Source of the DNA: a virus
Lineage: Duplodnaviria > Heunggongvirae > Uroviricota > Caudoviricetes
DNA length: 16,663 nucleotides
Virus record (IMG/VR): IMGVR_UViG_2690315994_000023
Strand: one strand, 5' to 3'
The notes below the pieces were generated by a model, which saw nothing but the letters and a program-made list of their open reading frames with translations, had not been told where the DNA came from and searched no databases. A program made the translations under genes and the position numbers. Below, piece by piece: positions 1-14,151 of the stretch. Position 1 is the stretch's first letter, and each line of letters starts with the position of its first letter.

Positions 1-171
1 TACCGCCGTGAAGGTTACGAATATGATTGCGTGATGCCTGTTTATCAGTTCCGGCGTGATTTTTCTCTGGTACAGACCGCGCCGCATAACGTGCCCACCA
101 GCAACGCCAGGGCACGGGCAAACATCCAGAAGCTGAAAACCATGGTTAACGGATTCAGGGGCAAGAAATGA
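1..171 (+). CDS. 3' end of an upstream ORF (5'-truncated by the window edge), hypothetical protein
   Basis: Frame 1 is open from position 1 to TGA at 169..171, and the stop overlaps the ATG of the next gene (ATGA at 168..171). It is under 60 aa so absent from the ORF track. The second island has an analogous small ORF coupled to its replicase (11592..11873). Confidence 0.35.
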   Translation, partial: YRREGYEYDCVMPVYQFRRDFSLVQTAPHNVPTSNARARANIQKLKTMVNGFRGKK

Positions 172-740
172 AAAGCGCACCGAACTTAAAAAAACAGCCT
201 TACGACAAGATGACCGAAGTCATTATTTTTGCGGGTAGTGATGCCTGGGCACATGCGAAACAGTGGCAGGAACAGGACGGGCGACTGGCTGGCGATAATG
301 TGCCTCCCGTTGTGCTGGCTGATGATCAACTGGATGAACTGGCAGACCTGAGAATCATCGACGAGGGGCGCTATTGTGTCCGGCTGTACAAGGCAGGCCA
401 CATCAGGCCATCAAATATTAATGCCATTGCGCACAAGCTGGCGGCGGCGGGTGTAACTGATGCGAATTATTACCCCGAAGGGATGCACAGCCATATGCGG
501 GAGAACTGGCGCGAATACCTGGAACGGGTGCGCGGGAAAGAGCCGGCGGAAGAAAAAAACCACCAGCGAAAAACCACGCTACCGATGAGCGTTGGATCTA
601 CCGGATACGACACGCAACTGGATTACGTGGTTAAGGGGATTATTCCGGCGGTATCGCTATGCAGCATATACGGGGCTAGCGGGTCCTATAAATCATTCCT
701 TGCCGGATCGTGGGCGTGCCATGTTGCCACTGGTCGCTAG
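168..740 (+). CDS. Replication initiator, N-terminal part: conserved N-domain plus Walker A P-loop, ending at an in-frame TAG
   Basis: The first ~105 aa align with the N-terminus of the replicase at 11857..13545 (shared FAGSDAW, HAK, AGD..PPV, QLD.L..LRIID.GR, KLA.AGV). The ORF ends just after a P-loop-like IYGASGSYKSFLAG motif, at TAG 738..740. Confidence 0.75.
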   Translation: MKSAPNLKKQPYDKMTEVIIFAGSDAWAHAKQWQEQDGRLAGDNVPPVVLADDQLDELADLRIIDEGRYCVRLYKAGHIRPSNINAIAHKLAAAGVTDANYYPEGMHSHMRENWREYLERVRGKEPAEEKNHQRKTTLPMSVGSTGYDTQLDYVVKGIIPAVSLCSIYGASGSYKSFLAGSWACHVATGR

Positions 741-779
741 TGGGGAGGCCGCAGGGTTGCACATGGTGCGGTTCTCTAT

Positions 780-1568
780 GTGGTTGGTGAAGGCGGTATA
801 GGTGTTCCGCGTCGTGTAAAAGCCTGGGAGGTTGTGCACGATGAGCAGGTGAAAAATCTGTATCTGGTAAACCGCCCCATCTTTCCGGCTGCCCCGCTTG
901 ATGTTGATGAAATGGTTATCGCTGCCCGTCAGGTGGAGCGGGAAACGGGTAAACCTGTACGCATGATTATTCTGGATACGCTGGCGCGTTGCTTTGGTGG
1001 GAATGATGAAAATGATTCCCGTGATATGGGGGCGTTTATCCGTGGTTGTGACGAACTGAAACGACGCACAGGGGCCACGGTGCTGGTGGTTCACCATTCC
1101 GGCAAGGATGAGACGAAAGGCGCGCGCGGTTCCAGTGCATTTCGTGCTTCGCTGGATGCTGAATACCGGATACGCAGGGAGGACGCAGGAAGCGAAGCGC
1201 TGGTTATCTCATGCACCAAAATGAAGGACGCGGAGGAACTCAAAGAAGCCGCATATGACTTACGCGTGGTGGAGCTTTTTACCGACGCTGACGGTGAATT
1301 AATCACGTCGCTGGTGGTGGTGGATGATCCGCGCCCTCCTGTTGAACTGGAGCGCATCGAGGAGGCAGGGAACAAGACGGAAAACCATACCGCGCTATGG
1401 GGATGCATACGTTCACGCACACAGCACGGCGACAAGTGCACGATCCCGCTGTTACGTGACGATATGAAAAAGCTGGGGTATGACACAAAACACCTTAAAC
1501 GATGGTTAGCCAAACTGGAAAAAGACGACGTGATCTACATTGACGGTGATGATGTAGGACCACTGTAA
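780..1568 (+). CDS. Replication initiator, C-terminal part: RepA/DnaB-like RecA-fold ATPase core
   Basis: It is in the same frame as 168..740 (both starts are 0 mod 3). Read-through gives ...ACHVATGR-TAG-WGGRRVAHGAVLYVVGEGG..., the layout expected after Walker A in RepA-like helicases. VLVVHHSGKDETKGARGSSAFRASLD resembles the conserved helicase core. The GTG at 780 has no Shine-Dalgarno, so it is probably not an independent gene. Confidence 0.7.
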   Translation: MVGEGGIGVPRRVKAWEVVHDEQVKNLYLVNRPIFPAAPLDVDEMVIAARQVERETGKPVRMIILDTLARCFGGNDENDSRDMGAFIRGCDELKRRTGATVLVVHHSGKDETKGARGSSAFRASLDAEYRIRREDAGSEALVISCTKMKDAEELKEAAYDLRVVELFTDADGELITSLVVVDDPRPPVELERIEEAGNKTENHTALWGCIRSRTQHGDKCTIPLLRDDMKKLGYDTKHLKRWLAKLEKDDVIYIDGDDVGPL

Positions 1569-1770: not shown

Positions 1771-2022
1771 ATGACTCAAAAACACAGAGACAGAACAGAG
1801 CCAAAATATAAAGCGTTAGACATGACAGAGCACGCCTTAAAGGTGGCAATCAGAACGATAGACCGCCACGCGGGGGAAGGATACGCGAAAGCACATCCCG
1901 AACTGATAAGCGCATTCATGACCACGACGGCGGCAAATTTTGCCACGCTGACAGAGCGGGAGATTGCGGAAGCTGAACAGGTGACAACCATCAACGTTAA
2001 AACCGGAGAGGTGGAATCATGA
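1771..2022 (+). CDS. Hypothetical protein (83 aa), translationally coupled to ssb
   Basis: ATG at 1771 is preceded by GAGGTGGG (Shine-Dalgarno-like). The track ORF 1639..2022 extends upstream through the iterons, and that extension is probably not coding. The stop overlaps the ssb start (ATGA at 2019..2022). Confidence 0.45.
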   Translation: MTQKHRDRTEPKYKALDMTEHALKVAIRTIDRHAGEGYAKAHPELISAFMTTTAANFATLTEREIAEAEQVTTINVKTGEVES

Positions 2023-2429
2023 CAGCACAGATAGCAGCTTACGGGCGGCTGGTGGACGACCCGCAGGTAAAACAGACCAGCAAGGGCACACCAATGACGC
2101 TGGCACGTATGGCGGTATCGTTGCCATGTAGTCAGGCGCAGGATGGGCAGGCTACGTTATGGCTATCGGTCATCGCATTTGGTAAGCAGGCCGACTTCCT
2201 GGCTAAACATCAAAAAGGCGATGTTGCCAGCGTATCCGGCACGATGCAGGTCAGCCAGTGGACCGGACAGAACGGGGAAACGCGGCAGGGTTATCAGGTT
2301 ATTGCAGACAGCGTAATCAGTGCCCGTGCGGCACGTCCTGGCGGGAACAGACGCAAAACCACAGGCACACAGGGTAATCAGCCACCAGCGGGAGGCGATG
2401 ACCCTTACGGTGACGGTATTCCGTTCTGA
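2019..2429 (+). CDS. ssb: Single-stranded DNA-binding protein (SSB, OB-fold)
   Basis: The OB-fold region (LWLSVIAFGKQADFLAKHQKGDVASVSGTMQVSQWTGQNGETRQGYQVIADSV) parallels the bacterial SSB core. It is followed by a Gly/Pro/Gln-rich linker and an acidic tail ending DDPYGDGIPF, matching the SSB C-terminal D-D-D-I-P-F type tip. Confidence 0.85.
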   Translation: MTAQIAAYGRLVDDPQVKQTSKGTPMTLARMAVSLPCSQAQDGQATLWLSVIAFGKQADFLAKHQKGDVASVSGTMQVSQWTGQNGETRQGYQVIADSVISARAARPGGNRRKTTGTQGNQPPAGGDDPYGDGIPF

Positions 2430-2439
2430 GGGGGTGGCG

Positions 2440-2712
2440 ATGGTACATGACCGCATAGCGGAAGAACTCGAGGCGAAAGGCTTTTACCGGAGGGCGGCGG
2501 CGCGATGGGGTGAAGTCATGCTGCTGGTGGAGACAGACAAGGAACGGCATCAGGTTACGATGCGACGGCTGGAATGTTCCAGGAAGGCACAGAAGCCACC
2601 GGAGCCGCCGGATAACTTCGGAGACCTGAGAAAGGCAGTAGATCGCACTTATGCTGAAATGGGTATAGATGGTGTAAGCGATGAAATATGGCGAAATTAC
2701 CAGGACAGATAA
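2440..2712 (+). CDS. PerC-family small transcriptional regulator (probable)
   Basis: A 90-aa protein starting at ATG 2440 (Shine-Dalgarno GAGGGGGTGG). The N-terminal IAEELEAKGFYRRAAARWGEVM matches, from memory, the PerC-family signature (AE.LE.KG..RRAA.RW). The track ORF 2320..2712 is an upstream extension overlapping ssb. Confidence 0.5.
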   Translation: MVHDRIAEELEAKGFYRRAAARWGEVMLLVETDKERHQVTMRRLECSRKAQKPPEPPDNFGDLRKAVDRTYAEMGIDGVSDEIWRNYQDR

Positions 2713-2718
2713 TCACAC

Positions 2719-2741
2719 AGCCGGAGCAATCCGGCTTTTTG
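2719..2741 (+). terminator. Rho-independent terminator after the PerC-like gene
   Basis: AGCCGGA-gcaa-TCCGGCT hairpin followed by TTTTTG. Confidence 0.7.
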
Positions 2742-2860
2742 TCATGTTTTGTAAATTATTTGTTCGTGGTTGTTCCACGTTGCTCGCTGACCGGAACGGC
2801 ATATTTTACCCGACCTGAATCATGATTATTCTCGCCCGTGGTGCCAGGACGCTGGGGCCA

Positions 2861-2910
2861 TTTTCCCGCCTGTTAATGTGCTCGCCAATATTCATTACCA
2901 GGCGGGAAAA
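2861..2910. promoter_or_regulatory. Perfect 12-bp inverted repeat (TTTTCCCGCCTG ... CAGGCGGGAAAA) with 26-bp spacer, upstream of the capsid gene
   Basis: Arms at 2861..2872 and 2899..2910 are exact reverse complements. The repeat lies in the ~285-bp leader between the PerC-like gene and the capsid operon. It has T upstream and A downstream on both strands, so it is not a terminator. Confidence 0.4.
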
Positions 2911-2999
2911 CGATCGGTGCGATTACTGATTTCCTTATGAAAAACGGTTGAGTGTTTGCCGCGTCCTGGAGTTCCTTACTTAACCCCAGGACTTTTTTT

Positions 3000-4157
3000 A
3001 TGCCGAGAATAATCGAATTACGCCAGCAGAAAACCGCCATTAAAAATCAGATGCGCGACATGCTGGAGAACGCGGAAAAAGAAAACCGCAGTCTTAACGA
3101 TGCTGAGGGCGCAAAATTTGACGAATTACGCGCTAAAGCTGAATCCCTCGATAAAGACATTTCCCGCCTTGAAGCCATTGCAGACGAAGAGCGCAGCAAG
3201 CCAGGTAAAAGCAGCCAGACCACTGACCCCGCAGAATTACGCAACTACATTCTGACAGGTGAAACCCGCGCATTAAGTACAGGCGTTCCCGCTGATGGTG
3301 GTTATACCGTTATCCCCGAACTGAACACCGAAATCATGCGAATGCTGACGGATGAATCCACCATGCGCCGCATCTGTACCGTGAAGAAAATCAGCAGCAA
3401 CGAGTTTAAGCAGCTTGTTTCCGCTGGCGGTGCGACCGTTAACCACGGTGAAGAGGGTAAGACACGCGAACAGACCAGCACCCCGCAGATTAACGAGGTG
3501 AGCATTAAGCTGTATCCGGTCTATGCGTACCCGCGCACCACACAGGAAATCGTGGATTTTTCCGATGTGGACATCCTTTCATGGCTGACGGGTGAGATTG
3601 GCGACACCTTCACGGAAACCGAAGAAAGCGATCTGGTTGTGGGCGACGGTGACAAAAAAGCAAAAGGCTTTTTATCCGTACCCCGTGCAGAGAAGAACGA
3701 CAAAGAGCGTGATTTTGGTACGTTACAGGTAATTAAACCTTCCGAATCTCTGGCGTGGACATCTGCGGACCCGCTGATCGACCTGAAATTTGCATTACAT
3801 AAAAAATACCGCAAAAACGCGGTCTGGGTGGTTAACTCCACGACGGCCGCAAAACTTCAGAAGGTGAAGAACGCGAACGGTGATTACATCTGGCGCGACC
3901 GTTTACAGGCGGGTGATCCTGATACGTTGCTGGGCCTTCCGGTCGAATATCTGGAGTTTATGCCTGATAACGTTATTGCCCTGGGTGACTTCAAACGCGG
4001 TTACTACATTGTTGATCACGAAACAGGTGTTCGCACCAGACCGGACAACCTCACAGAGCCGGGCTTCATCAAAATTTTCACGCAGAAATATTTAGGCGGT
4101 GGCGTGGTGGATTCGAACGCGATCAAGATTCTGGAACTGCCACAGGACGACGATTAA
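3000..4157 (+). CDS. Major capsid protein, HK97 family, with N-terminal scaffold-like delta domain
   Basis: ATG at 3000 with AGGA 8 nt upstream. The N-terminal ~100 aa are coiled-coil and charged (IIELRQQKTAIKNQMRDMLENAEKENRSLNDAEGAKFDELRAKAESL), typical of the HK97 delta domain. Length and C-terminal region fit the HK97 capsid fold. Context is protease and portal immediately downstream. Confidence 0.88.
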   Translation: MPRIIELRQQKTAIKNQMRDMLENAEKENRSLNDAEGAKFDELRAKAESLDKDISRLEAIADEERSKPGKSSQTTDPAELRNYILTGETRALSTGVPADGGYTVIPELNTEIMRMLTDESTMRRICTVKKISSNEFKQLVSAGGATVNHGEEGKTREQTSTPQINEVSIKLYPVYAYPRTTQEIVDFSDVDILSWLTGEIGDTFTETEESDLVVGDGDKKAKGFLSVPRAEKNDKERDFGTLQVIKPSESLAWTSADPLIDLKFALHKKYRKNAVWVVNSTTAAKLQKVKNANGDYIWRDRLQAGDPDTLLGLPVEYLEFMPDNVIALGDFKRGYYIVDHETGVRTRPDNLTEPGFIKIFTQKYLGGGVVDSNAIKILELPQDDD

Positions 4158-4167
4158 CAGCATACAG

Positions 4168-4188
4168 AAGGGGCTTAAAAGCCCCTTT
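4168..4188 (+). terminator. Hairpin plus T-run between capsid and protease genes (possible attenuator)
   Basis: AAGGGGC-ttaaaa-GCCCCTT followed by TAGTGTTTT. Confidence 0.4.
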
Positions 4189-4211
4189 AGTGTTTTATGG
4201 GTGAAAAAATT

Positions 4212-4769
4212 ATGAAGAGTATGGAAATCCGGTCATCGGAAATCACCACCAGCGCCAGCAACACGCTTACAGGCTACGTTGTTCGCTGGGATAACCTTTC
4301 AGAGCTGCTATGGGGGGAGTTTTACGAAAAATTCCAGCGGGGAGCGTTTACTGAATGGCTTGCAGCGGGTAATGACGTTCGCGGCCTGTATGAGCATGAC
4401 CACAGCATGTTACTGGGGCGCACCCGTTCCGGCACGCTGAAACTGGAAGAGGACGACACAGGGTTACGCTTTGAACTGACCCCACCGGATACCAGTACAG
4501 GGCGGGACGTTATCGAACTGGTTAAACGAGGTGATATATCCGGCATGAGCTTTGGCTTTCGCTCCCGTAAGGATGTATGGGATACCACAACAGATCCATG
4601 CGTGCGCACCGTGCTGGTGGCGGAACTGTACGAAATTACCGTTACATCCGTACCGGCTTACCCTGATTCCGGCGTGGAGCTGGCCCGCCGCTCCCTGTAC
4701 GAGCAGCACCCCGAAAAAATGCCGCGTGCGGATAATCGCCGCTGGTGGGCGGATTTAGCGGGGGTGTGA
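4212..4769 (+). CDS. Prohead maturation protease, HK97 family
   Basis: Motifs GYVVRWDN, LYEHD, LGRTRSGTLKLEEDDTGLRFE, GDISGMSFGF and ELYEITVTSVPAYPDS fit HK97-type prohead proteases. ATG 4212 has GGTGA upstream; the alternative ATG at 4197 has no ribosome binding site. Confidence 0.85.
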   Translation: MKSMEIRSSEITTSASNTLTGYVVRWDNLSELLWGEFYEKFQRGAFTEWLAAGNDVRGLYEHDHSMLLGRTRSGTLKLEEDDTGLRFELTPPDTSTGRDVIELVKRGDISGMSFGFRSRKDVWDTTTDPCVRTVLVAELYEITVTSVPAYPDSGVELARRSLYEQHPEKMPRADNRRWWADLAGV

Positions 4770-7216: not shown

Positions 7217-7227
7217 TGAGGCTGTAT

Positions 7228-7272
7228 GACGGGGTGGGGGGCGTTTTCAGGACAAACCCGACCCCGCCGGGC
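7228..7272. other. Candidate cos / terminase recognition region (G-run and C-run imperfect dyad)
   Basis: GACGGGGTGGGGGGCG, a 13-bp spacer, then CCCGACCCCGCCGGGC, in the only sizeable intergenic gap between HNH and terS. Confidence 0.25.
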
Positions 7273-7339
7273 ACCGAACGCCTCCTCAAATTTTTATGCA
7301 CGGGAATTTTTTGAAAAATAATCTGGCGAAAAAATAAGC

Positions 7340-7696
7340 ATGGCAAGACCACCGAAAGCCCCCGCCTACCTGGATGATATCGCCGTGAAGCAGTGGCGGG
7401 AAAAATCGCGGCAGCTTGCGGAACGGGGAGACCTTACCCCCGCCGACTGGAGTAATCTGGAACTGTATTGTGTCAACTACTCCATTTACCGGAAAGCCGT
7501 TGCAGACCTTGCGGCGCGCGGGTTCAGCATTGTTAACAGTCAGGGCGGCGAGAGCAGAAACCCCGCATTAAGCGCAAAATCCGACGCTGAAAGAGTGATG
7601 ATAAAAATGGCCTCCTTGCTCGGTTTTGACCCGATAAGCCGCCGTAAAAATCCACCGGAAACAGAAGAAGAGGACGAGCTTGACCGCCTGGAATAA
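7340..7696 (+). CDS. terS: Terminase small subunit, P27 family
   Basis: A 118-aa protein directly upstream of and overlapping terL. The N-terminal PKAPAYLDDIAVKQWREKSRQLAERGDLTPADWSNLELYCVNYSIYRKA matches P27-family small terminases. Confidence 0.75.
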   Translation: MARPPKAPAYLDDIAVKQWREKSRQLAERGDLTPADWSNLELYCVNYSIYRKAVADLAARGFSIVNSQGGESRNPALSAKSDAERVMIKMASLLGFDPISRRKNPPETEEEDELDRLE

Positions 7697-9341
7697 GTAC
7701 GCAGAAGACGTAAAAACGGGCAAAATTCCGGCCTGTAAACGGCTGAAACAGGCCGTTAAACGGTACTTTTCGGACCTTGAAAGCCCCCTTTACACGTTCG
7801 ATCGTGAGGTTGTGGAGCGGTTTATTGCCTTTTCCAGGGTGTGCCCGCACGTAAAAGGCGCAATGCGCGGTAGCCCCATTGAGCTGGAGCCGTGGCAGCA
7901 GTTCGCCTTTGCGTGCATCCTCGGCTTTAAGGTTAAGGCCACCGGACGGCGCAAATACACGAGCGCCTTTATCGAAGTGCCGCGCAAAAATGCGAAATCC
8001 ACGACCGCCGCGATTCTGGCTAACTGGTTTTTGATTATGGAGAACGGTCAGCAGGATATCTACACCGCAGCGGTGAGCCGTGACCAGGCGCGGATCGTCT
8101 TTGATGATGCGCGTCAGATGTGCCTTTTATCCCGACCGTTACGCAGGCGGGTGAATATTCAGGCGCATAAGGTGATACACCCGAAAAGCAACAGCCTGTT
8201 AAAGCCGCTGGCAGCAAAAGCGGCAACCATTGAAGGTACAAACCCGAGTCTTGCCATTGTGGATGAATATCACCTGCACCCTGACAACGGGGTTTATTCC
8301 GCGCTTGAACTGGGAATGGGGGCGCGTCCGGAGGGGCTGTTATTTGCCATCACCACATCGGGGAGCAACGTTGTTTCAGCCTGTAAACAACACTACGACT
8401 ATTGCTGCCAGATACTGGATGGTGAAGAGGTGAACGAATCCATGTTCGTGCTGATTTACGAGCTGGATGATGAAAGCGAGGTTGACGATCCGGCGATGTG
8501 GATAAAGGCGAATCCAAATATCGATGTTTCCGTCGATCGTGAAAAACTGGCCTCAACCATCCAGAAAGCGCGGGGTATTCCGTCGCAGTGGGTGGAAATG
8601 CTCACCAAGCGATTCAATATCTGGTGTCAGGGGGCTACGCCGTGGATGGGTAACGGTGCATGGGCGGAGTGCGCCGGAACGTTCACGGAGGAAGATTTAC
8701 ACGGCCAGGAGTGTTACGCGGGGCTGGATTTATCATCCACAAGCGATATTTCCAGCGTGTGCTATGCCTTTCCGGTCGGTAAAACCATTATGCTGGTTTC
8801 CCGTCATTATCTGCCGGAGTTCCAGCTACAGAACCCCGCCAATAAAAACCGCGCTGTCTATCGTCAGTGGGCTAAAGCGGGCTGGATACGCACAACGCCT
8901 GGCGACTGCATTGATTACGACCGGATCAGAGATGACATCATGCAGGACGCGGAGAAATTTAATATCAGGCTGGTGGGCTTTGATACGTGGAACGCCACGC
9001 ATCTCAGAACGCAATTACAGGGGGCAGGTTTTGAGGTGGAGCCGTTCCCGCAAACCTACCTCAGATTCAGTCCGGCGGCGAAATCGTTCGAAGTTTTTGT
9101 TAACCGCAGGGTGATTGTGCATCGTGGCGATCCGGTGTTGTCCTGGTCGATGAGTAACGTTGTGATGCAGAGTGACGCGAACGCCAATATCAAGCCGAAC
9201 AAGAAAAAATCACCGAACAAGATAGACCCGAGCGTGGCGGCACTGATGGCGTTTGGCACATTCCAGGCAGAGCATGAGGATTTTGAATTCGATATGAGCG
9301 ATAGCCATAAGCAGCGACTTGCCGAATTTACCGGGATTTGA
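7680..9341 (+). CDS. terL: Terminase large subunit
   Basis: A 553-aa protein with a Walker A-like segment (EVPRKNAKST), a Walker B-like stretch (LAIVDEYH) and a C-terminal nuclease-like region. The start is uncertain: TTG at 7680, overlapping the terS 3' end. Confidence 0.88.
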   Translation: MTAWNKYAEDVKTGKIPACKRLKQAVKRYFSDLESPLYTFDREVVERFIAFSRVCPHVKGAMRGSPIELEPWQQFAFACILGFKVKATGRRKYTSAFIEVPRKNAKSTTAAILANWFLIMENGQQDIYTAAVSRDQARIVFDDARQMCLLSRPLRRRVNIQAHKVIHPKSNSLLKPLAAKAATIEGTNPSLAIVDEYHLHPDNGVYSALELGMGARPEGLLFAITTSGSNVVSACKQHYDYCCQILDGEEVNESMFVLIYELDDESEVDDPAMWIKANPNIDVSVDREKLASTIQKARGIPSQWVEMLTKRFNIWCQGATPWMGNGAWAECAGTFTEEDLHGQECYAGLDLSSTSDISSVCYAFPVGKTIMLVSRHYLPEFQLQNPANKNRAVYRQWAKAGWIRTTPGDCIDYDRIRDDIMQDAEKFNIRLVGFDTWNATHLRTQLQGAGFEVEPFPQTYLRFSPAAKSFEVFVNRRVIVHRGDPVLSWSMSNVVMQSDANANIKPNKKKSPNKIDPSVAALMAFGTFQAEHEDFEFDMSDSHKQRLAEFTGI

Positions 9342-9535: not shown

Positions 9536-9556
9536 AAGAGGTTCATCCCCCTACAA

Positions 9557-9588
9557 AGCACCAGTATTGTTCTGGTGCTTTTTTGTTT
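9557..9588 (+). terminator. Rho-independent terminator at the end of island 1
   Basis: Perfect 8-bp stem AGCACCAG / CTGGTGCT with a 7-nt loop, followed by TTTTTTGTTTGTT. Confidence 0.8.
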
Positions 9589-13848: not shown

Positions 13849-14151
13849 GGTGTCATTAATTTATAAGGTGTCATGGTAGGTGTCATTGTTCTCAAGCCAT
13901 AACCCGCAAGGGTTGCGACATTACTAATGACACCTATGACACCTATGACAGCATTTTTAAAGAAAATAACGACCACTGTAATAATGTAACAGTGGTCGTT
14001 ATACTTTATAGAAATGGGTGTCATGGTGTCACAGGTGTCATTCATTACAGTATCTTGTTTGTATTTTTCTTTAATAATCAGCGTGTTTCCCGCTATGACA
14101 CCTAATGACACCTTTCCAACATAACGCCGTCATGGTGACATTAGGTGTCAT
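13849..14151. repeat. Iteron array, putative origin of replication of island 2
   Basis: GGTGTCAT at 13849, 13867, 13879, 14017, 14034 and 14144. Its reverse complement ATGACACC at 13927, 13936, 14095 and 14105. Variants GGTGTCAC at 14025, GGTGACAT at 14134, and a partial at 13945. The array has an AT-rich centre. Confidence 0.65.
13966..14002. repeat. Perfect 14-bp inverted repeat (ATAACGACCACTGT / ACAGTGGTCGTTAT) with 9-bp AT spacer, at the centre of the iteron array
   Basis: Exact reverse-complement arms at 13966..13979 and 13989..14002. Confidence 0.6.

Follow-up and report, generated by a model that had tools for sequence, protein, structure and literature searches.

A covarying hairpin in a predicted Shine-Dalgarno-occluding leader RNA of the capsid operon of an Escherichia coli phage satellite

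Introduction

What is the function of the perfect inverted repeat that precedes the capsid operon of a phage satellite? We analyzed this repeat in a stretch of 16,663 nucleotides (virus record IMGVR_UViG_2690315994_000023), and "the window" here means that whole stretch. By its sequence, the window is an Escherichia coli capsid-forming phage-inducible chromosomal island (cf-PICI). The cf-PICIs are recently recognised, widespread satellites that build their own capsids and borrow only tails. AlpA induction is the sole control step mentioned in the cf-PICI literature that we searched, and no description of a capsid leader, promoter or RNA was found in the cf-PICI and PICI literature. The initial annotation of the window had pointed to the dyad and had speculated that it is an operator or activator site of the head and packaging operon, possibly bound by the product of the neighbouring PerC-like gene or by a helper-encoded late activator. 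Our analysis favours another explanation, which we hold with a probability of about 0.6: the dyad would be the P2 stem of a conserved, structured 5′ leader RNA in which the ribosome-binding site of the capsid gene is hidden, and no protein would bind it as DNA.

Results

The dyad and the fold of the leader

The two 12-nt arms of the dyad, TTTTCCCGCCTG (2861-2872) and CAGGCGGGAAAA (2899-2910), are exact reverse complements separated by 26 nt, as first described. With one mismatch, T/C at 2873/2898, the dyad grows to 18-nt arms (2861-2878 and 2893-2910) with 17 of 18 positions paired and a 14-nt loop (2879-2892). Its location was also given correctly. The dyad lies downstream of both the PerC-family gene and the terminator of that gene, and the distance to the capsid start, estimated at about 90 bp, is 89 nt from the end of the 3′ arm to the ATG, which is at 3000 and not at 3001. 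Among dinucleotide-shuffled windows, 5.7% had a perfect inverted repeat of 12 bp whose arms were no more than 60 nt apart (mean of 0.11 per window), and two more such loci are present in the window, near 13.97 and 14.1 kb. Chance frequency alone is a weak argument for the dyad, and its real support is comparative.

We folded the sense strand of the ∼160-nt leader. The minimum free energy (MFE) fold consists of hairpin P1, hairpin P2 (the dyad), a weak hairpin and hairpin P3 (Table 1), with an energy of -64.7 kcal/mol and a z-score of -4.15 against shuffled sequences. P2 alone contributes a stable structure (-23.5 kcal/mol, pair probabilities of 0.84-1.0). The AGGA Shine-Dalgarno (SD) sequence (2988-2991) lies inside P3, where its probability of being unpaired is 0.0 and the pair probabilities of the stem are 0.99-1.0. 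A start-proximal hairpin was also found in the related loci L006, L007, L275 and L109 (related loci are given as L numbers), and the P3 stem is kept with a different loop in L063.

A second pairing competes with this fold. The 9 nucleotides at 2844-2852 are complementary at 9 of 9 positions to those at 2961-2969, and the long-range helix thus formed shares its strands with P1 and P3. When the long-range helix was enforced, the leader folded at -56.2 kcal/mol, a cost of 8.5 kcal/mol in the window. The corresponding gap was 6.3, 6.9 and 8.0 kcal/mol in L006, L007 and L275, respectively.

The weak hairpin between P2 and P3 contains ATCGGTGCGA (2913-2922). This segment is similar to GTCGGGCGGC, the 3′ arm of P2 in leaders of the L089/L275 type, and is possibly a vestigial partner, or an alternative one, for the 5′ arm of P2. 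Further downstream, AUGAAAAAC (2937-2951) begins a 4-codon mini-ORF (open reading frame), and the surrounding segment pairs with the U7-AUG region in the MFE fold.

Related leaders

Homologous loci were collected by comparing the capsid protein with genome contigs and viral contigs, and a capsid alignment with metagenome contigs. More loci came from a search of viral contigs with a P1 sequence pattern and from BLAST against E. coli genomes. The leader type of the window was present in about 360 of 5,426 complete E. coli genomes at 93-100% identity, and its relatives were found on metagenomic and viral contigs in the hundreds. A comparison with 50,697 phage records gave no match to the leader of the window and only three to the leader of family 2 (described below); one of the three is an "induced prophage" of 16.5 kb, the size of a cf-PICI.

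The leaders fall into two families. Family 1 comprises those of E. coli and Shigella together with the divergent L063. Family 2 comprises 140 distinct sequences from Citrobacter, Erwinia, Rosenbergiella, many metagenomic contigs and some E. coli (L275). MAFFT joins the two families through P1 and the CGUC region. A tract of T7 or T8 follows P3 in 32 of 32 family-1 leaders, whereas family 2 lacks it. The P2 5′ arm of the L089/L275 type (GCCGCCUGAC) resembles CCCGCCUG of the window.

The outermost pair of the dyad, T2861-A2910, is the less common allele: C2861 is present in 28 of the 32 distinct leaders of the E. coli/Shigella type. There, that base closes P1 (G2838-C2861), so the usual dyad consists of 11 perfect pairs, a mismatch and 5 more pairs. 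The commonest stem polymorphism in E. coli is C2865T (6 of 32 leaders), which gives a U.G wobble, and the P2 loop is more polymorphic than the stem.

Pairing is kept while sequence changes

A hairpin stands directly after P1 in more than 150 distinct related leaders. Its sequence differs from group to group, its loop ranges from 11 to 45 nt, and some family-2 examples form three-way junctions. Arms observed at this position include GGCCGUUUAA/UUAAACGGCC, AGCCG.../...CGGCU, UGUCCACCCGG/CCGGGUGGACA, UGUCCACCUGG/CCAGGUGGACA, GGCCGUCAG/CUGACGGCC and GCCGCCUGAC/GUCGGGCGGC, among others; family 2 has at least 15 different stems there.

We measured covariation in a plain MAFFT alignment of 92 leaders. 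In P2, all 9 of 9 pairs showed changes on both sides and 92% of cells were paired, with states such as UA 40, AU 24, CG 12 and UG 12 at one pair and AU 56 and GC 34 at another. For the whole structure, 93% of cells were paired, compared with 32-49% when the partners were slid, and 15 of 26 pairs changed on both sides. None of 500 shuffles reached the observed covariation score. An alignment made with a covariance model gave 95% of cells paired and 18 of 26 pairs covarying, and 9 of 10 P2 pairs had changed on both sides. This model (R1) found 89 matches in 99 sources, with one strong match per cf-PICI locus, on the capsid strand and ending at the AUG. The match in the window spans 2835-3002 (60 bits, E 4e-15). 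On 66 more sources, strong matches were found in 50, together with six weak minus-strand matches (E 0.02-0.64).

The changes in P2 also carry a strand signature. Read on the sense strand, mismatches of the G.U type numbered 27 and those of the A.C type 9. Taken together, the covariation on both strands of the stem, the slid controls, the wobble bias and the variable spacing point to selection on RNA pairing and argue against a protein that reads DNA half-sites.

Covariation was also seen in P1 and in the long-range helix. Inner-stem pairs of P1 covary between families (UA/CG, CG/AU and AU/GC/CG). Column 74 of the alignment (window position 2852) covaries with column 69 in P1 (AU 81, GC 6, CG 4) and also with column 197 in the long-range helix (UA 82, CG 6, GC 4), in the same three sequence groups. 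Columns 69/202 and 76/195 covary too. Single changes that yield wobbles are GAUG in L090 and GGCG in L112 and L140. RNAalifold took the long-range helix as the consensus without being given a hint. One base of P1 thus covaries with both a local and a distant partner, and the covariation of both pairings indicates that the predicted leader has two mutually exclusive folds.

A model for the leader

The transcript would start at about 2838, from a weak promoter-like site, and would carry P1, P2, a linker, P3, U7 and the AUG in this order. The dyad would then occupy about +24 to +73. In the OFF state, P1, P2 and P3 would form together and conceal the SD; in leaders of the E. coli lineage, P3 and U7 would also make up a terminator-like arrangement. 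In the ON state, the long-range helix 2844-2852 : 2961-2969 would enclose P2 and free the SD arm and the U-tract hairpin. P2 would be present in both folds as a compact, stable spacer that brings the distant strands together. Such an architectural role, which we consider likely for P2 on this model, would explain why its pairing is kept while its sequence and apical length vary. Since thermodynamics favours the OFF fold by default, some factor must shift the leader to the ON fold when capsids are needed. The analysis shows the structure, its covariation and an SD that is occluded in the predicted fold, whereas the start of the transcript, switching in vivo, its trigger and the architectural role of P2 are inferred.

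Several observations weigh against this model. The ON fold is 6-8.5 kcal/mol less stable than the OFF fold and has a negligible probability at equilibrium, so that a trigger has to be postulated. The promoter-like site agrees with the consensus at only 8 of 12 positions, and a promoter scan did not call it. The P3 of family 2 is not followed by a U-tract, and a canonical SD is missing from the ribosome-binding region of that family, so that termination of transcription may be a feature of E. coli only or an incidental one. The covariation of P1 and of the long-range helix consists of three sequence states and few independent events, and the viral pattern search fixed part of the P1 sequence, so that the sample is biased to one state. 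For the P2 5′ arm of E. coli, the covariance model chose 2913-2922 as the partner and not the 3′ arm of the dyad. The homology of the dyad to the family-2 P2 consequently rests on position and on the shared CCGCCUG 5′ arm, and the P2 counts of the model understate the pairing in family 1, which we judged instead from the MAFFT alignment and by direct inspection. Finally, one group of leaders is unstructured (L304, L306, L307, L310, L312, L313, L316 and L317, at about 350-603). These keep the box described below and the upstream terminator, and they have a CA-rich leader of ∼45 nt with no canonical SD; the fold of L306 reaches -3.9 kcal/mol. Short unstructured leaders in these cf-PICIs mean that the module is optional for capsid expression.

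Two more groups escaped the covariance model: L309, L314 and L315, and L009, L323, L324, L326, L347 and L354. L309 and L314 nevertheless show a related layout: the start-proximal arm is duplicated near the 5′ end, the centre is occupied by a stable hairpin of 12-14 bp, and another hairpin adjoins the start codon. The Gilliamella leaders (L009 and L323) have a long central hairpin.

The upstream box and the predicted promoter

A conserved box, TTTTGTAAATTATTTGT, was found in the leaders of E. coli, Rosenbergiella, Citrobacter, Erwinia and Gilliamella. Of 155 distinct leaders, about 135 have the start of the box 87-89 nt upstream of P1; in 15 the box pattern had no match, and in the others the offset was different. 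The box is kept where the upstream gene is divergent. No second copy was found in the island with up to 3 mismatches allowed, and there is accordingly no evidence for a repeated AlpA-type site. The box is probably the real DNA control element of the capsid operon and a better candidate for one than the dyad.

Both families keep the hexamers TTTAC(C/T/A) and TAT(T/C)(C/T)T at fixed positions before P1. We predict that they form a weak promoter, probably activator-dependent, whose transcript begins with P1 (∼2838). The leader persists behind divergently oriented genes (L056 and L057), which implies that the operon has its own promoter. In family 2 (L006 at about 2790-2830, and many other loci), a terminator-like hairpin CCCCUGUCUCUGACGGGGG followed by a U-run stands between the box and the promoter-like hexamers, and the U-run overlaps the -35 position.

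The genes upstream of the leader vary. In different relatives, these are perC, a 75-aa (amino acid) phrog_1957 ORF, a ProQ/FinO gene with the same ORF, or a divergently oriented accessory gene, and the leader travels with the capsid gene whatever stands upstream. The proposed connection with PerC is not borne out by this pattern. In many relatives, a phrog_1957 ORF of 75-90 aa lies between perC and the leader (L002 708-932, L275 4722-4970). It is absent from the window, where an apparent deletion of ∼354 bp (at 2712/2714) has left a single terminator; the terminator at 2719-2743 of the window is the same as the one that follows the 75-aa ORF in relatives. As an obligatory partner of the leader, the phrog_1957 ORF was ruled out, being directly upstream in 86 of 243 leaders and missing in the window. 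In the E. coli cf-PICI L275, a gene for a ProQ/FinO-family RNA chaperone (4201-4731) takes the place of perC, upstream of the phrog_1957 ORF, which possibly hints at control at the RNA level.

Other explanations for the dyad

We weighed five other explanations. In the first, P2 is a processing or stability hairpin, either an RNase III site, as in the lambda N and T7 early leaders, or a protector of the mRNA together with P1. The stem is long and near-perfect (11 + 5 bp in the window, 10-14 bp elsewhere), P1 is predicted at the very 5′ end, and P2 is conserved in structure only, as expected of a nuclease or stability element. A 9-bp strong hairpin with a partial T-run lies at 4167-4188, between the capsid and protease genes; together with the leader it would bracket a stable capsid mRNA. 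RNase III prefers roughly two helical turns (∼20 bp) of mostly uninterrupted double-stranded RNA, and the P2 stems appear to fall below this length. Processing or stability also leaves unexplained the three-way covariation of P1 with the anti-SD region and the recurrence of the competing-arm layout in leader types that the covariance model did not detect. We regard this explanation as rather unlikely on its own, and it does not exclude the switch model, with which it is compatible. The 4167-4188 hairpin could increase the output of capsid over that of the downstream genes, either by terminating transcription in part or by stabilising the 3′ end.

The second explanation is a device acting on transcription, in which P1-P2 would work like a put element and render RNA polymerase resistant to termination, or the leader would give a ∼160-nt terminated transcript, like lambda 6S RNA, that needs an antiterminator of the island or the helper. 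It draws on the two adjacent hairpins immediately after the predicted start, on the presence of P3 and U7-U8 abutting the AUG throughout family 1, on the partial terminator after the capsid gene and before the protease and portal genes, and on the AlpA-family regulator encoded by the island; an AlpA of Pseudomonas is an antiterminator. However, the start-proximal hairpin is followed by no U-tract in family 2 or in the L309/L314 and Gilliamella types, P3 (7 bp with a 16-nt loop) is a poor terminator that the terminator scan did not call, and we identified no Q-binding-type element. We consider such a device unlikely. The dyad itself was ruled out as an intrinsic terminator: it has no U-run 3′ of the stem on either strand, where its flanks read TTTT before and AAAACG after, and the terminator scan was silent.

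The third explanation is the one initially proposed, that the palindrome serves as an operator or activator site on the DNA, to which the PerC-like protein or a late activator of the helper would bind; a different regulator of the island could also be considered. The 12-bp palindrome is perfect and lies in the one large stretch of non-coding DNA ahead of the capsid operon, the regulator gene perC adjoins it in the window, and the half-site core CCCGCCTG is kept across the E. coli/Shigella family, including the divergent L063. The cores, however, are 27 bp apart in L063, 34 bp in the window and 39 bp in L051 and L053, and a dimer that contacts two half-sites on one face of the DNA helix could not tolerate such differences. 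The family-2 hairpins at the same place have unrelated sequences, compensatory changes and the wide range of loop lengths given above, and wobble-compatible changes are favoured on the sense strand. In addition, the conserved promoter-like hexamers precede the dyad, different genes stand upstream of the leader in different relatives, and half-sites do not occur in extra copies beyond chance. A DNA operator is therefore very unlikely. What stands of the proposal is that the dyad lies in the capsid and packaging leader and is very probably cis-regulatory. Its conservation in related islands is likewise divided: the hairpin is kept widely, and the sequence only in close E. coli/Shigella relatives.

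In the fourth explanation, the variable hairpin is a specificity determinant, as one half of a cis-antisense or trans-acting RNA pair or as an RNA operator for a protein specific to the island, that sets immunity or compatibility groups among co-resident satellites. Precedents would be P4 CI with seqA-C, c4 of P1 and P7, and the copy-control RNAs of plasmids. P2 cassettes are indeed swapped between near-identical flanks, P1 and P3 hardly vary, a given P2 type is found with at least four different upstream variants, and one relative encodes the ProQ/FinO-family chaperone upstream with a 75-aa ORF between it and the leader. Against this, no minus-strand promoter or terminator is evident and the G.U bias favours the sense strand. 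The stem base is semi-conserved and the apex variable, a pattern also seen in helices at the periphery of structured RNAs. Outside the leader, the window contains no segment complementary to any part of it over 11 nt or more, and the three 10-nt matches are at chance level. When P2 class was compared with the island proteins of 92 long loci, every gene was associated through shared ancestry and none stood out. We find a specificity role most improbable.

Finally, a chance or neutral palindrome with no function, which the ∼6% of shuffled windows with a perfect 12-bp repeat would allow, is almost certainly not the answer, given the compensatory changes after P1 in so many distinct leaders and an E. 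coli stem that varies less than its loop.

The surrounding island

The features of the window are listed in Table 1.

Table 1. Positions of the capsid leader elements and of the genes assigned in the window.
Feature	Position	Strand	Basis and remarks
RepA-type helicase gene (repA)	168-1568		Pfam
SSB gene	2019-2429		Pfam
PerC-family gene	2440-2712	+	Pfam PF06069, E 4.5e-45
Intrinsic terminator of upstream gene	2719-2736 (hairpin), T-run to 2743	+	7-bp stem, 4-nt loop; terminator scan
Conserved box TTTTGTAAATTATTTGT	2747-2763	+	Candidate DNA control site of capsid operon
-35-like hexamer TTTACC (predicted)	2805-2810	+	-33 to -28 from P1 start; TTTACT/TTTACA in family 2
-10-like hexamer TATTCT (predicted)	2827-2832	+	16-nt spacer; -11 to -6 from P1 start; TATCTT in family 2
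P1 hairpin GUGGU.CCAG[GACG]CUGG.GCCAU	2838-2861	+	MFE fold, -14.3 kcal/mol alone; GACG loop invariant
Long-range helix, 5′ strand CCAGGACGC	2844-2852	+	Copy of SD-bearing arm; 5′ half and loop of P1
P2 hairpin (dyad)	2862-2909 (arms 2861-2878 / 2893-2910)	+	MFE fold; covariance-model match
Weak hairpin	2912-2931	+	MFE fold
Long-range helix, 3′ strand GCGUCCUGG (DNA GCGTCCTGG)	2961-2969	+	Overlaps anti-SD arm of P3
P3 hairpin GUCCUGG / CCAGGAC	2963-2992 (GTCCTGG 2963-2969, CCAGGAC 2986-2992)	+	MFE fold
U7 tract	2993-2999	+	Directly 3′ of P3, abuts AUG; terminator-like
HK97-type major capsid gene, first of packaging operon	3000-4157	+	Pfam PF05065, E 1.1e-61
TerS gene	7340-7696		Pfam
TerL gene	7680-9341		Pfam

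The capsid gene is also annotated by RefSeq in a near-identical island. Further Pfam assignments in the window are a prohead protease, a portal protein, head completion and connector proteins and an HNH protein. A closely related island in E. coli 2013C-4991 is inserted at tqsA, with the gene order int, alpA-like helix-turn-helix gene, ..., repA, ssb, perC, capsid, ..., terL. EcCIEDL933 has the same organisation as the 2013C-4991 island (10.1101/2022.09.08.507074).

The repA gene of the window contains a C738T change that converts CAG to a TAG stop, and the copy of the gene in NZ_CP027355 is intact. This copy of the island may be replication-defective through the stop. Directly 3′ of repA, at 1565-1770, the iteron AAAGTGGG occurs in many copies and in both orientations around an AT-rich stretch, which is likely the replication origin. 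The dyad was ruled out as the origin of the island, as the iterons lie beside repA and not at the dyad.

We presume, by analogy with HK97, that cos lies between the HNH gene and terS (7217-7339). A repeat search of that region gave nothing decisive. The dyad is disfavoured as a cos or terminase DNA site, its variation being compensatory and wobble-tolerant. A strong terminator follows the last island ORF (9555-9581), and perfect inverted repeats of 11-14 bp, possibly REP (repetitive extragenic palindromic)-like, are clustered at 13877-14151 in the chromosomal flank downstream of the island.

Discussion

Leaders that occlude the SD and have alternative folds are known from the lambda cIII mRNA, from translational attenuators and from the expression platforms of riboswitches. 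The leader described here resembles them in having three strands with exclusive pairings, an SD in the start-proximal hairpin and an upstream copy of the SD arm that competes. It differs in that the competitor strand is locked in a 5′-terminal P1, a fourth element of the system, the variable P2 is enclosed by the long-range helix, and the element belongs to a phage satellite.

Two phage systems offer a partial likeness at the level of transcription. The lambda PR′-6S RNA-tR′ unit is a late leader under Q antitermination. The E. coli lineage shares with it a promoter, a short structured leader and a hairpin with a U-tract before the first head gene. In contrast to lambda, we found neither a Q gene nor an element that Q could bind, the other families lack the U-tract and the hairpin contains the SD. 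The position of the SD inside P3 points to translational control. The put RNA of HK022 is a cis-acting antiterminator made of two stem-loops. Judged by its description, it is like P1 and P2 in having two adjacent stem-loops directly downstream of the predicted promoter of a phage-type operon, whereas the P1/anti-SD pairing has no counterpart in put.

Among satellites, P4 has an immunity leader (CI RNA with seqA, seqB and seqC) whose processed trans-acting RNA prematurely terminates the early operon (PMC10111431). Both are satellite leader RNAs with internal complementary segments controlling downstream genes. In the leader described here, the complementary segments are conserved, do not bear specificity and stand before a capsid gene. 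With palindromic operators, the dyad shares a perfect repeat in a regulatory intergenic region; it differs from them in that half-site sequence and spacing vary and the pairing is under selection.

We searched for earlier records of this RNA. Rfam 15 gave no match at the gathering score in the window or in 7 related loci, and an Rfam search by E-value over 2650-3100 gave only chance-level matches to plant microRNA precursors (long hairpins), far below gathering. RefSeq has no non-coding RNA annotation under the leader matches. Judged from its sequence and predicted pairing, the leader is a candidate new RNA family that would function like the known SD-occluding leaders.

A broader possibility, which we advance tentatively and think doubtful, is that a modular riboregulator, assembled several times from different sequences, gates the capsid operons of cf-PICIs. 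Its types would be those of E. coli, the widespread GACG-loop leaders, L309/L314 and possibly Gilliamella. All of them would follow a similar logic, in which a copy of the start-proximal arm is locked away, the central hairpin can be exchanged and the ribosome-binding site is occluded. The riboregulator would be flipped by a helper signal or by an RNA-binding protein of the island, and the swapped P2 would be the specificity element.

A conserved leader that hides the SD would add a post-transcriptional control point to capsid production in cf-PICIs. P1, P2, P3 and the box at 2747-2763 would offer a mutable handle on the timing of satellite capsids relative to the helper. If the broader possibility is true, the riboregulator would let the satellite make its own capsids only when helper tails are coming.

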